A DNA stretch of 64,000 nt, from the IMG/VR virus record IMGVR_UViG_3300043468_001158; one strand, written 5' to 3'. The stretch is from a virus (taxonomy: Duplodnaviria; Caudoviricetes). Position numbers and translations under genes: made by a program. The notes under the pieces were generated by a model that did not search any database, was not told where the DNA came from, and saw only the letters and a list, made by a program, of their open reading frames with translations. Each line of letters opens with the position of its first letter. Within the stretch, counting starts at the first letter, position 1. Below are positions 2,494 to 57,283 of the stretch, piece after piece.

Positions 2494-3117
2494 ATGGCAT
2501 TCGAACTACTAAACGAATTGCAAACATTGATGCAAGAAGACAAATCAAAAAAACAACAAGAGTTCTTATTAGTAGAACGAGTTGATAAGTTGTTAGGTCA
2601 TCTACATGCGATGTTAGCAAACAAAGAAAACCCTCTTGAAGACGTAGACGTTGAAGAACTTTCTACTCAATTGGCTGGATTACAACTTCTTGGCAAGAAA
2701 GACCATCGTGATGCAATGGATGATTTCTCTAAACTTGACCAAGCAGGTGTGTCTAAAAACTTCTACAAATTTCTTGACCAAATTGATGACCCACGTCAAA
2801 CTCCAGACTTCAACGACAAACGTTCAGCTGATGACTTGTTGAAATACATTGCTACAACTCACGCACCTTCTGTGGTCAGTGATTGGAAGAATGCTATTGA
2901 AGCGGCACAAAATGGAGATGTGAAATCATTGGCAAAAATCAAAGATGCGGTCAATAAGATGTATACTTTCTATCAAGCACAATTCAACAAGTTACATTCG
3001 CACTTCAAAGTTGGCGGTTCATTTGATGACTTAGTGCCAGGTGCCGTTCCAGGTGCTTCAACTACTGGACCAGTGCCAGGAACCGTTCCTATGGACGCAA
3101 TGAAACAAGCTGCGTAA
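2494..3117 (+). CDS. Hypothetical late protein, possible internal head protein
   Basis: GGAG RBS, late promoter upstream, N-terminus MAFELLNE resembling a prohead-protease-cleaved leader. Confidence 0.75.
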   Translation: MAFELLNELQTLMQEDKSKKQQEFLLVERVDKLLGHLHAMLANKENPLEDVDVEELSTQLAGLQLLGKKDHRDAMDDFSKLDQAGVSKNFYKFLDQIDDPRQTPDFNDKRSADDLLKYIATTHAPSVVSDWKNAIEAAQNGDVKSLAKIKDAVNKMYTFYQAQFNKLHSHFKVGGSFDDLVPGAVPGASTTGPVPGTVPMDAMKQAA

Positions 3118-3133
3118 TAAACCTCTTCACTCC

Positions 3134-3173
3134 AATTTCAGAGACAGTTGACTTTTTATCTGTCTCTGAAATT
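3134..3173 (+). terminator. 14-bp perfect hairpin separating late gene from Ro60 operon promoter
   Basis: aatttcagagacag (3134-3147) / ctgtctctgaaatt (3160-3173). Confidence 0.65.
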
Positions 3174-3178
3174 ATCCG

Positions 3179-3207
3179 TTTACATATGTCACATTCTGTG
3201 ATAGAAT
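3179..3207 (+). promoter_or_regulatory. Sigma70-type promoter driving ncRNA + Ro60 operon
   Basis: TTTACA-17 bp-TAGAAT with extended -10 TG; predicted TSS about 3214. Confidence 0.75.
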
Positions 3208-3223
3208 ATAATCTCAAACTTGA

Positions 3224-3526
3224 ACAGTACGTATAAAGATGCGGTCTTCTTTCACTACCGATTAGTGATGATTATCTTAACTGACGTAGTTTCAGTTCTT
3301 GATTGAACTGACGTTTGCTGGTGGATGAGGCTAATCAGATCGTTGTTAGACCGAATGCTAACTATGAGACAGGATGAATTCTCCTGTGTAGGACGTATAG
3401 CTCTGAATAGTTATACTAGATTGTTGAAAAGAATACTCTCAAACGGGTTTCATTAGTATTTCTTCAATTGAAATCTTCGTTACTAGAATTTTGTAGTAAA
3501 AGAAGACCTATCTTTATACGTACTGT
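3224..3526 (+). ncRNA. ~300-nt structured ncRNA, candidate Y-like RNA (Ro60 ligand)
   Basis: 5' acagtacgtataaagat (3224-3240) pairs perfectly with 3510-3526; then G-U, bulged C3242, ggtcttcttt (3243-3252) pairing with 3499-3508, then 5 more bp; internal hairpins at 3260/3336, 3345-3362, 3369-3387, 3395-3416, 3424-3467; lies between the promoter and the Ro60 RBS. Confidence 0.75.
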
Positions 3527-3571
3527 GTCAAAACTTTTTGCTTTCTATTCTAAACAGGAGCCGTGATTCAT

Positions 3572-5203
3572 ATGTCAAATGCAACTAACCTCTACAAATC
3601 AGTAGTTCCAACTAAAGATTCTACTACTCCTCAAACTAAAGTAATTCCAGGTCGTGAAACCGAAATGGTTTCCAATCATGCTGGTGGTGTAGTCTTTGCA
3701 GTATCAGATATGATGTATCTTGACAGGTTCTTGATACTTGGTTCTGAACAACCAAGCTTCTATGCATCAGCTCAAAAGCTAACACAAGAAGCTGCGTCTA
3801 ATGTTATCAAGTTGATTGCTAAAGACCCAGTGTCAGTGGTCAATCGTGTGGTTGAAATCTCTAATGCTGGACGTGCTCCTAAAAACGACAGTGCTATCTT
3901 TGTATTGGCTCTTGTTGCAGTATCACCTAATAACGAAGCTCGTCAATTAGCTTTTGATGCACTTCCAAAAGTATGCAGAACTGGTACTCATTTGTTCCAA
4001 TTCGTTGACCTTATCAATTCAATGGGTAAATGGAATGCAGTGACTAAACGTGGTATTGCAAACTGGTATAACAGCAAAGATGTATCTCGTCTTGCATTTC
4101 AACTGTTGAAGTATCAACAACGTAATGGCTGGTCTCATCGTGATGTATTGCGATTGGCTCATGTAAAACCTGATAGCAACACTCGCTCTTCATTGTATCG
4201 TTGGGTAGCTGCAAAAGATAGCGAAGCAAAACGAATCGCTGCATATGAAGCTCCAAGAATTGTTGAGTTTCATTCAGCATTACATAAAGAGCCATCTAAA
4301 TCGTTGGCACTTGAATGTATCGAAGAGTTCGATATGACTTGGGAAATGTTGCCAACTGAACTTTTGAAAGATGTTGATATCTGGGCTGCTTTGATTCGTA
4401 ACATGGGTTATACTGCATTGCTTCGCAACTTGGGTCGCTTCTCTTCATTGGGAATGACTAAAGGTTTGTCTTCTACTTTGAAGGACATAGTAGCTGGTCT
4501 TAGCAATGTTGAAGCTTTGAAACGTGGAAGAGTTCATCCTATCACAATTTTGAATGCATTGAAAACTTATAGCCAAGGTCATGGTGACAAAGGCTCAATG
4601 AGCTGGGATGTTTCAACTCATGTGAAAGGTATATTGAACGATGTTTTCTATGAAGCATTCAACTTCATAGAACCAACTGGTAAAAACTTCTTCATTGGGG
4701 TTGATTGTTCTGGTTCAATGTTTGGAGCTAATGTTGTAGGATTACCAAACTTGACTGCTGCAGAAGTAGCAGGTGTGATGGCATTAGCAATCGCAAAACG
4801 TGAACCAAACTATTGGATTGGTGGCTTCAATACTAAGATGTCTGAACTGAAGATACATCCACAAATGCAATTGCCTGAAGTGCTGAAGGTCATCAGAAGC
4901 TTTTCATGGGGTGGTACAGATTGTGCATTGCCAATGATTCATGCAACTCAACATAAGATGGATGTCGATTGCTTTGTAACTATTACAGATAATGAAACTT
5001 GGGCTGGTCGTGTTCATCCAACTGAAGCACTTCGTGATTATCGTAAAGTGATGAACAAACCAAATGCTTGTAATATGGTACTTGGTACTTCAACTACTCG
5101 CTTTACTGTAGCTGACCCTAAAGACCCACGTCAATTGGACATCGTTGGATTCGATTCATCAGTACCTCAACTTGTATCGGAGTTTGCACAAGGCAACATA
5201 TGA
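3572..5203 (+). CDS. rsr: Ro60/Rsr RNA-binding protein (TROVE + vWA domains)
   Basis: Characteristic N-terminal 'NHAGGVVF...LDRFLILGSE', 'GRAPKND', 'KYQQRNGWSHRDVLRLAH', 'ALLRNLGR', vWA MIDAS 'VDCSGSM', 'GGTDCALPM', 'TDNETW'. AGGAG at 3556-3560 favours ATG 3572 over GTG 3563. Confidence 0.95.
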   Translation: MSNATNLYKSVVPTKDSTTPQTKVIPGRETEMVSNHAGGVVFAVSDMMYLDRFLILGSEQPSFYASAQKLTQEAASNVIKLIAKDPVSVVNRVVEISNAGRAPKNDSAIFVLALVAVSPNNEARQLAFDALPKVCRTGTHLFQFVDLINSMGKWNAVTKRGIANWYNSKDVSRLAFQLLKYQQRNGWSHRDVLRLAHVKPDSNTRSSLYRWVAAKDSEAKRIAAYEAPRIVEFHSALHKEPSKSLALECIEEFDMTWEMLPTELLKDVDIWAALIRNMGYTALLRNLGRFSSLGMTKGLSSTLKDIVAGLSNVEALKRGRVHPITILNALKTYSQGHGDKGSMSWDVSTHVKGILNDVFYEAFNFIEPTGKNFFIGVDCSGSMFGANVVGLPNLTAAEVAGVMALAIAKREPNYWIGGFNTKMSELKIHPQMQLPEVLKVIRSFSWGGTDCALPMIHATQHKMDVDCFVTITDNETWAGRVHPTEALRDYRKVMNKPNACNMVLGTSTTRFTVADPKDPRQLDIVGFDSSVPQLVSEFAQGNI

Positions 5204-5868
5204 AAATCGTAAGTCCGTTCAAAGACTACTATGATTATCTTGTAGGAGTATACGGCATAGATGAGTCTATTGTCTATGTTCGTAATACTCTTGCAAAAGG
5301 TTATGTTACGACTGAGAAAAAAGTATTTGACTTTCACCCATTTGCTATACCACCTGGTTATAAGACTAAGTATGTAGTAGTGAATGGGCGAAAGTATTTG
5401 TTTGTATGTCCTTCAAATTCTTATCTTGTAAAACCAAGATGGGAATTGTATGATTTCGATAAACATCATGGTCATGAGTTCATATCTCAACGATACTTTA
5501 GAAGGAAAGACCTTGAAGAACAACAAAAAGATTACATTGGTGGAACATCTCAAGCTCTAATTGACCTTTCAAAAGAAGTTGGAACTCCAGTGTTCAGTGT
5601 CACTGGATTTTCATGGATTGAGCGAAGCAAAAAGACTAATCGAAAATATGAATATGCGTTGGATAATGAAGTACCAATGCTGTCTGAACATGGCTTTCCG
5701 AATATCATCCCAGCAAATCAATTGTACCAAGAACTTGAACATTATTTGTGTAATGTATTACGGGATTCTCCTGATACAAAACCGCCAGTAACTATCAGCG
5801 ATAAAGATATGATTGAAAGCAAGGGCTTTGATAAAAAGATAAGCTTCCGTCATAGGAAGAATAAATAG
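5200..5868 (+). CDS. Hypothetical protein translationally coupled to Ro60
   Basis: ATGA start/stop overlap with Ro60 gene; 222 aa. Confidence 0.8.
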   Translation: MKIVSPFKDYYDYLVGVYGIDESIVYVRNTLAKGYVTTEKKVFDFHPFAIPPGYKTKYVVVNGRKYLFVCPSNSYLVKPRWELYDFDKHHGHEFISQRYFRRKDLEEQQKDYIGGTSQALIDLSKEVGTPVFSVTGFSWIERSKKTNRKYEYALDNEVPMLSEHGFPNIIPANQLYQELEHYLCNVLRDSPDTKPPVTISDKDMIESKGFDKKISFRHRKNK

Positions 5869-56851: not shown

Positions 56852-57283
56852 ATGCCAAACTCAGTCGTTAAGTCTTTTGCCAAACGTGCAAATAAATCAG
56901 AATCTGAAGTAGAAAAACTTTGGAAAGAAACCGAAGAAGAAGTCAAAGATAAGTTCAAGTTCAAAACTTCTGCATATTGGGCTTATGTAAATAAAACAGT
57001 TCAACATAAGTTAGGTTTAGCAAAAGAATCGCTTTCATTTAGAGACTATTGTTCTATTATTTTGAATGAAGATAAAAAAGAACCCTTTAAAATTGGACAA
57101 GTTGTAAAACTCTGTAAAGCAATAAAAGATATTCCCGATGCAACCATTGGAGAAACTTTTTCTATTATCGATATAGATGAAAAGTCAGGAGATATCAAAA
57201 TATCAAATGCCTTTGGACCAGAATATCAAGATACGTATTTCAAAAAAGATTATTTTACTACAATTGAGGCAAAAGATAAATAA
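56852..57283 (+). CDS. Hypothetical late protein
   Basis: 143 aa; basic helical N-terminus, internal 'LSFRDY...LNE' leader-like motif. Confidence 0.7.
   Translation: MPNSVVKSFAKRANKSESEVEKLWKETEEEVKDKFKFKTSAYWAYVNKTVQHKLGLAKESLSFRDYCSIILNEDKKEPFKIGQVVKLCKAIKDIPDATIGETFSIIDIDEKSGDIKISNAFGPEYQDTYFKKDYFTTIEAKDK

Follow-up and report, generated by a model that had tools for sequence, protein, structure and literature searches.

A conserved family of very large RNAs beside ro60 in uncultured phages, probably Y RNAs with a multi-hairpin interior

From humans, where the protein is a lupus and Sjögren autoantigen, to bacteria, Ro60 has Y RNAs as its defining partners, and we know of very few for which a role of the effector module has been established. 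In bacteria and phages, Y RNAs are recognized by their genes lying near, and on the same strand as, that for Ro60 (Chen et al. 2014, PMC4201824), and YrlA is present in 22 phages (PMC4201824). The Deinococcus radiodurans Y RNA Yrn1 retains both strands of the metazoan-type Ro-binding helix and tethers Ro60 (Rsr) to PNPase (PMC4201824). In the Thermus phage phiLo, Yrl1 and Yrl2 are Y-like RNAs directly upstream of the phage ro60 gene that bind phage Ro60 in several stoichiometries and form a complex with host PNPase (PMC12135203). Here we examine a stretch of 64,000 nt (hereafter "the window") of the IMG/VR virus record IMGVR_UViG_3300043468_001158, a 106-kb record estimated to be ~42% complete, and focus on the region upstream of its ro60 gene. 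We conclude, with a probability of roughly 0.8, that the RNA encoded at positions 3220-3531 (+ strand) belongs to a conserved family of very large Y RNAs, which serve as non-coding Ro60 partners. This conclusion rests on the structure of the RNA, its conservation and covariation across relatives, its fixed position beside ro60, and a Y-type stem signature, each of which is observed directly in the sequences analysed.

The ro60 gene of the window (3572-5203, +) codes for a TROVE plus vWA protein (Pfam TROVE 7e-35, vWA_Ro60 6e-51; PHROG 850 "RNA-binding protein" 8e-72), which these domain matches identify as a canonical Ro60. Among solved structures, it is closest to D. radiodurans Rsr (2nvo, 2e-111) and Xenopus Ro60 (1yvp, 3e-99), and its match to the RO60 entry 9nen (E 1e-100 or better) is like those to Deinococcus and Xenopus, while the phiLo Ro60 is merely a distant match (E 7e-7). 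The original prediction for this locus, made from the sequence of the window, had placed a sigma-70 promoter at 3179-3207 followed by a stretch free of open reading frames (ORFs) up to the ro60 ribosome-binding site, and both were confirmed. The promoter-like site (+ strand) consists of TTTACA, 17 nt, and TAGAAT, is TG-extended, and has 10/12 matches, with a predicted start near 3214. The upstream gene stops at 3117, and no credible ORF lies in the gap between promoter and ro60 ribosome-binding site, in which the only ATG frame, of 43 amino acids (3325-3456), lacks a ribosome-binding site. From the 3' end of the RNA to the ro60 start codon there are 41-46 nt, on the same strand.

The two ends of this gap pair with each other, exactly as first described. 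Walked pair by pair, the outer duplex comprises 17 perfect bp (3224-3240 with 3510-3526), a G-U pair (3241/3509), a bulged C3242 and 10 perfect bp (3243-3252 with 3499-3508), and then a mismatch (3253/3498) and 5 bp (3254-3258 with 3493-3497). The helix runs on past the duplex initially recognized, through a bulged C3259 and the pairs G3260-U3492 and A3261-U3491 into a 10-bp stem (3262-3271 with 3477-3486). RNAfold predicted a free energy of -105.1 kcal/mol for 3215-3535, compared with -69.4 +/- 5.0 for shuffled sequences (z -7.1; 0/100 shuffles as good), i.e., structure beyond chance expectation. Internal hairpins are present as proposed, and their number, originally given as five, is about eight in the minimum-free-energy fold and four in the centroid. 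The resulting RNA is ~303-312 nt long, and its terminal stem (P1), at 33 bp counted from 3224 or 37 bp in the minimum-free-energy fold, is the longest in the family described below.

Relatives of this locus were found in scans of viral contigs, metagenomes and prokaryote genomes, with Ro60 proteins 47-64% identical to that of the window; none of these scans yielded a Ro60 closer than 58-64% identity. Cultured phages gave no blastn match, and the best hit of a Ro60 protein search across 50,697 phage records was 41% identical. Several of the relatives' contigs measure 257-368 kb, which is the size range of jumbo phages, and in almost all relative loci ro60 is preceded by a 450-600-nt gap without ORFs. 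Motifs common to these gaps and the window include CCG followed after 8-12 nt by GGUUAYC, GUGUAGG, GAAAUCUCCGAC, and UUUUG, and at the site equivalent to the window promoter, 5' of their first Y RNA, the relatives carry (G)TTTAC(A/T), 17 nt, and TAnAAT.

Since MAFFT aligned the interior poorly when applied to all long RNAs, we built a covariance model (R1) on a well-aligned subclade of 10 relatives (alignment A2), excluding the window, and aligned the remaining sequences by this model. The RNAalifold consensus of the training set comprised 42 pairs, 27 of them with compensatory changes. Applied to the window, R1 matched 3250-3501 (+) over the full model (positions 1-265) with 45.2 bits (rough E ~3e-14), and this was the only significant match in the 64 kb. 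Full-length matches upstream of ro60 and on the same strand were likewise obtained in every other untrained locus of the first set, and 12 of the 16 loci of a second scan were matched as well. One match (L048 234-481, JBBIQC010000584.1; 178 bits) lies on a 2.3-kb contig whose ro60 product is 55% identical and which is binned in an Oscillatoriales metagenome-assembled genome; the contig is probably phage DNA that was binned there wrongly, and as a clue to the host it is weak at best. Overall, at least 33 distinct loci, from metagenomes and uncultured phages, have the RNA at this fixed position upstream of ro60 and on the same strand, and judging from these sequences the family is found so far only in uncultured, mostly jumbo-sized phages. 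No R1 match was obtained in Ro60 loci of Dehalococcoidia bacteria. In the clade to which the window belongs, three Ro60 loci (L065, L067 and L092; 52-54% identity) had no R1 match at E up to 0.01 and may carry a more divergent RNA, or none.

Covariation, which had been proposed as a test of the ro60-upstream regions in related phages, was clearly present in 24 held-out sequences never used in training (alignment A6). In this set, 92.4% of cells were paired, compared with 35.5-42.0% when partners were slid, and changes on both sides, i.e., compensatory changes, occurred in 38 of 42 pairs; the alignment is fitted to the model structure, which favours pairing. The covariation score was 0.587, compared with at most 0.094 in controls, and was reached by 0/500 shuffles, and pair counts in a mixed set were similar to those of the held-out set. 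An independent gapless analysis, anchored on sequence motifs only, gave 88-89% pairing vs. 23-56% for shifted partners. Because held-out covariation and motif-anchored pairing agree, the conserved family can be considered a real structured RNA of the + strand, the strand being fixed by G-U pairs in both stems and by model matches on the + strand only. These same data make it hardly credible that the element acts at the DNA level, as the end of a mobile element or as a site of recombination or replication, or that it is a chance palindrome without RNA function. Such a reading draws on the uniqueness of the perfect 17-nt arms, which are the only 100% complementary inverted repeat of at least 17 nt within 500 nt in the whole window. 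Yet the arms of the relatives are unrelated in sequence and still pair, the G-U pairs would turn into mismatches on the opposite strand as well as in DNA, internal helices covary too, and the model matches one strand only.

The most conserved part of the family points to Ro60. In the window, the stem module reads ACUAC-C3259-GA-UUAGUGAUGA-UUAUC, with UCGUUACUAG-AAUU-UU-GUAGU on the 3' side, and the conserved element that resembles a Ro60 site would be its inner bulged helix, ACUAC[C3259]GA with UU-GUAGU, followed by a second stem (P2) and UUAUC. The 5' end of human Y1 is GGCUGGUC-C-GA-AGGUAGUGAG-UUAUC, with the 3' stem CUCACUACU-GCAC-UU-GACUAG (PMC3928194), and that of human Y4 is GGCUGGUC-C-GA-UGGUAGUGGG-UUAUC (PMC7012775). 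Shared with both are the paired ends, a bulged C in ..C[C]GA.. opposite UU-G with its flanking pairs, and a second stem of ~9-10 bp followed by UUAUC, with an identical CCG-to-UUAUC distance of 11 nt; the layout of the 3' strand (second stem, 4-nt loop, UU, G) is that of human Y1. Both strands of the metazoan-type Ro-binding helix (metazoan GGUCCGA with its bulged C, opposite UUGAC) are thus recognizable in the window RNA. Unlike metazoan Y RNAs, it is three times longer, has a ~200-nt multi-hairpin interior in place of a pyrimidine-rich loop, carries 28 extra bp in the outer stem, and shares a bacterial-type promoter with ro60. The original prediction had likened C3242 to the bulged C of animal Y RNAs. 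This bulge does exist, but it sits in the window-specific outer stem extension, and the conserved Y-type bulge is instead C3259; deletion of C3242, which had been proposed as a binding control, would therefore address the wrong bulge.

Similar stem modules occur in other phages. Mycobacteriophage Bxz1 has three RNAs upstream of Ro60 with GGCCGA, ~10 nt, and CGGUUAYC, and the closing module alone lets R1 detect short Y RNAs (72-75 nt; 21-25 bits) next to Ro60 in Bxz1 and in the Streptomyces phage Enygma, with no match in Atu_ph07, Big4 and BearBQ. Since Bxz1 and Enygma are picked up through this module alone, the stem module appears common to Ro60-linked RNAs, and the large interior is the new part. 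We regard it as very unlikely that the element is some other structured RNA (tRNA-like, ribozyme-like, or a decoy for a host defence or nuclease) that merely lies beside ro60 without being bound by Ro60. The interior does lack a known counterpart, with Rfam empty, and large ornate non-coding RNAs of unknown function, such as GOLLD and ROOL, are known in phages. However, position and strand beside ro60 are fixed across the family, the part conserved most strongly is the stem signature common to human, mycobacteriophage and Streptomyces-phage Y RNAs, and the RNA is absent from the rest of the window and of the 106-kb record. A regular-expression search for a second Y RNA across the whole record returned only scattered coding-region matches, and a weak R1 match in the window at 57021-57064 (11 bits) was rejected as a plain hairpin.

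Family members are 221-387 nt long (median 304). Each of the 21 long RNAs measured has a P1 stem (median 18 bp, range 10-37 bp); the sequences forming it are unrelated, and 4-6 types of pair occur at each position. In the bulged helix, the C-G pair is invariant (24/24 held-out sequences), and the bulged nucleotide is a C in 20 of the 21 long RNAs and an A in L006, followed by G. P2 spans 5-10 bp, and UUAYC follows in 20/21 (UUAAC in L006). The interior then covers 168-303 nt with 6-9 hairpins, and the 3' side consists of GAAAUCU, the P2 3' strand, a loop of 4-9 nt, UU (or UC), G, and the P1 3' arm. Most relatives have in addition a short Y-type RNA of ~60-170 nt between the promoter and the long RNA, with GGAAC[C]GA...GGUUAUC on its 5' side and ...CUCUUUGUUCC on its 3' side (e.g., L001 2530-2620, L008 2466-2585, L014 2515-2660), for which no Rfam match was found; the window, L005, L006 and L013 have the long RNA only.

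In the window (all + strand), the P1 5' arm (3220-3258) includes the window-specific C3242 and leads into CCGA (3258-3261), the presumed core of the putative Ro60 recognition site, in which the conserved bulge C3259 is flanked by the C3258-G3493 pair on one side and by G3260-A3261, paired with U3492-U3491, on the other. The P2 5' strand (3262-3271) pairs with 3477-3486; of the model helices located here, helix 3 is paired in every cell (100%) and shows compensatory changes, and helix 2 reaches 83-88% paired cells. The conserved UUAUC (3272-3276), 11 nt after CCG, closes the stem module and opens the interior. Three interior elements align, or in the first case probably align, with the family. 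The first is a hairpin with the core GUGGAUGAGGCUAAUC (3318-3338), similar to the conserved GUUGAAAGACAAGCC hairpin of the family, to which it probably corresponds. The second is a hairpin (3340-3367) with the T-loop-like loop ACCGAAUG (3350-3357; CGAA at 3352-3355), which aligns to model helix 8 (91-94% of cells paired, compensatory changes in 4/4 pairs). The third is a conserved hairpin followed by a near-invariant GUAGG junction (3369-3393; 3369-3374 with 3382-3387, GUAGG at 3388-3392), which aligns to model helix 9 (94-98% of cells paired, 5-6 covarying pairs), and GTGTAG(G/A) is present in most relatives. CGAA occurs in family interiors about twice as often as in shuffles (54 vs. 27). On the 3' side, the conserved GAAAUCU (3470-3476) stands directly 5' of the P2 3' strand (3477-3486), which is followed within 3477-3497 by a small loop AAU(U), U3491-U3492, and GUAGU, the start of the P1 3' arm (3493-3531). 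In L014, a CUACCUA-type internal loop (2720-2735) is complementary to the conserved GUAGGUAG junction (2885-2892), as is the case in L008 and L011, all part of one subclade, and could form a pseudoknot. A general long-range pairing of a CCUAC-type loop with GUAGG was rejected, since it is missing or displaced in the window and in most of the other members.

The interior separates this family from the small Y RNAs described so far. Its ~200 nt and 6-9 hairpins appear new by comparison with Rfam, which has no match, and the literature that we searched describes phage Y RNAs but none of such size or architecture (PMC4201824, PMC12135203). Like YrlA (RF02553; Salmonella, Mycobacterium and mycobacteriophages), the RNA adjoins Ro60 on the same strand and is modular, with a stem module plus an effector module. 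It also has a UCGAA-type-loop hairpin, another hairpin and then U-A-G, which recalls the order of T-arm, acceptor-like hairpin and D-arm/UAG in YrlA. Unlike YrlA, it has no D-arm, and it is ~2-3 times longer (the YrlA model has 114 positions). The initial remark that there is no tRNA-like T-arm holds in that Rfam detects no YrlA-type tRNA-like domain, but it overlooked the conserved CGAA-loop hairpin at 3340-3367 and the hairpin plus GUAGG that follow it. Based on published descriptions, Yrn1 resembles the family in its two-stranded Ro-binding helix, and differs in being a small Y RNA with a T-arm-like end. Likewise by description, Yrl1 and Yrl2 of phiLo are similar in their position 5' of the phage ro60, their CGAA-bearing hairpins, and the tandem arrangement of two RNAs seen in most relatives of the window; they are described as canonical Y RNA-like with one or two hairpins, in contrast to the 6-9 hairpin interior seen here.

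Several observations weigh against the identification as a Y RNA, in addition to the bias of the pair counts mentioned above. The Rfam families Y_RNA (RF00019) and YrlA (RF02553) match neither the window nor eight relatives (E up to 10) nor the L014 gap. More generally, no family of Rfam 15 matched the window, or 14 relatives at gathering score, where only chance-level miRNA and snoRNA rows appeared; a cmscan match to an already described family, which could have explained the element away, was thus not obtained for the window, the relatives or the L014 gap. For Y_RNA, a non-match is expected, since a model of small Y RNAs cannot accommodate a 200-nt interior. For YrlA, the negative result in the window is meaningful, because the same model matches the tRNA-like domain of Bxz1 (32.5 bits), used as a positive control. 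ARAGORN found no tRNA or tmRNA in the window, the 106-kb record or 21 loci, and is uninformative on tRNA-likeness, as it also misses the permuted YrlA of Bxz1. The 5' motif of YrlA, GNCGAAN0-1G, is only partly present: the window has ACCGAUUAG, and the family keeps CCG, not GAA, with the bases after CCG varying between GCU, GGA, GUU and GAU. The same motif is found in internal hairpin loops, e.g., ACCGAAUG in the window. At 303-312 nt, the window RNA also lies outside the usual size of Y RNAs (roughly 70-160 nt), although it adjoins ro60 on the same strand and has paired ends and the conserved bulged helix. With the nearest relative at only 58-64% Ro60 identity, comparison gives no direct support to the window-specific hairpins (3278-3311 and 3395-3476) or to the outermost 28 bp of the stem. 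Domains of RtcB, RNase III and RNase PH/PNPase were not found in the 106-kb record, which is weak evidence as the record is only ~42% complete. Finally, no intrinsic terminator lies between the RNA and ro60, and the RNA could accordingly act in cis within the mRNA.

This last point bears on an alternative raised from the start, namely that the element is a structured leader kept on the ro60 mRNA, where Ro60 or another factor would bind it to control translation or stability, and is not a free trans-acting RNA. The promoter type recurs in the relatives and no terminator precedes ro60, so that RNA and gene are most likely one transcript. The single promoter, the mere 41-46 nt that separate the end of the element from the start codon in the window, and the fact that a Y-type site on its own mRNA would be a natural autoregulatory operator are all compatible with such a leader. 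Other features make it unlikely. In L012 (2680-2900), L015 (2575-2900) and L041 (1260-1420), an ORF is located between RNA and ro60, separating the two by ~250-450 nt, and a short and a long Y-type RNA stand in tandem in most relatives. As a consequence of these two features, a trans-acting, excised RNA is favoured over a translational leader. In addition, terminal stems as long as these (10-37 bp) are usual in RNAs that are excised and stable, and phiLo also has two Y-like RNAs directly upstream of ro60. The Y RNAs of Salmonella, too, are located in an RNA-repair operon next to rsr and are nevertheless trans-acting.

A cis role is better suited to a separate, conserved small hairpin at the ribosome-binding site. 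Of 20 relatives with a recognizable leader, 18 have this hairpin (UUG-stem-loop-stem-CCG) at 10-16 nt before the ro60 ribosome-binding site (e.g., L001 2973-2991, L014 2981-2999), and it stays with ro60 when an ORF is inserted upstream. Its covariation is modest, with compensatory changes in 3/7 pairs. The window has a weak, degenerate copy at 3540-3561 (+; GCUUU with GGAGC, flanks UUUUUG and CCG), whose 3' arm overlaps the Shine-Dalgarno sequence AGGAG (3556-3560). Because the flanks mimic the bulged helix of the Y RNA, reproducing its G-C pair, bulged C and G-U, the leader hairpin could be a Ro60 operator, or else a processing or stability element.

For the large Y RNA itself, the following course of events appears plausible. 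Host sigma-70 polymerase would transcribe the RNA from the 3179-3207 promoter as the first part of the ro60 transcript, and the long, near-perfect terminal duplex would insulate it. A double-strand-specific nuclease, e.g., host RNase III, would then probably cut it out of the ro60 mRNA. Given the likeness to known Y RNAs, the phage Ro60 ring would bind the inner bulged helix, the 10-bp stem, and UUAUC opposite GAAAUCU. More speculatively, the ~200-nt interior may be an effector module, with the CGAA-loop hairpin, the hairpin plus GUAGG, and the GUUGAAAGAC-type hairpin as sub-motifs, and may tether Ro60 to other factors, such as tRNA-binding enzymes or RNases (host PNPase among them), or use its CGAA loops to link additional Ro60 rings. 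Both the putative binding to the inner helix and the tethering of partners by the interior are proposed by analogy with Xenopus, Deinococcus and phiLo. As a tentative extension, which we consider possible rather than probable, these RNAs would form a giant Y RNA class of an uncultured jumbo-phage clade in which the metazoan-type Ro60 helix is fused to a new multi-hairpin scaffold. Through its CGAA loops, this scaffold would carry several Ro60 rings, or else it would bring in a host factor that is not PNPase; the resulting ribonucleoprotein would redirect host RNA decay or repair in the course of infection, and Ro60 would also repress its own mRNA through the UUG-stem-CCG mimic before the ribosome-binding site.

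The surroundings of the RNA include several other features. A near-perfect 14-bp hairpin (3134-3173) lies directly past the upstream gene and directly before the promoter; it has no clear T-run and was hence missed by the terminator scan, and its sole Rfam matches are chance miRNA-like rows. Further upstream, a second ORF-free gap (2013-2493) contains a strong intrinsic terminator (2030-2064 plus T-run) and direct repeats (a 17-mer at 2131-2147 and 2192-2208, a 22-mer at 2150-2171 and 2334-2355) that may be regulatory sites; considered as a further Y RNA, it was rejected, with no Y-type motif and a fold z of just -2.3. Downstream, a 222-amino-acid ORF (5200-5868) overlaps the ro60 stop codon by 4 nt, an arrangement that suggests translational coupling to ro60, and matches only phrog_4243 (function unknown). 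This ORF is not next to ro60 in the relatives, several of which have DHFR closely behind ro60 at this place (directly in L016). DHFR is found downstream of ro60 in 7 of 16 loci searched, as in the window, and is the sole syntenic protein neighbour. For RNA repair or ligation, a single candidate domain turned up in the 106-kb record, an RNA_ligase domain (PF09414, 30 bits) in a 637-amino-acid frame at G000:C1:19026-19481, ~11 kb upstream of the window start.

Taken together, homologues, covariation and stem signature bear out the central proposal of the original prediction, i.e., a distinct and unusually large class of phage Y-like RNA beside, and co-transcribed with, Ro60. It is a large new variant on the known Y RNA theme that is of real interest for research on Ro60, Y RNAs and phage RNAs, and does not introduce a new principle. 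With at least 33 loci and strong covariation, the family is suited to submission to Rfam, and annotation stands to gain from it, as Ro60 loci of jumbo phages are now labelled just "RNA-binding protein" and their RNA is unannotated. The conserved new sub-motifs could be used as bait for targets of phage Ro60 particles. By joining a two-stranded, metazoan-type Ro-binding helix to a new interior, the family ties animal and phage Y RNAs more closely together than the tRNA-like YrlA does.

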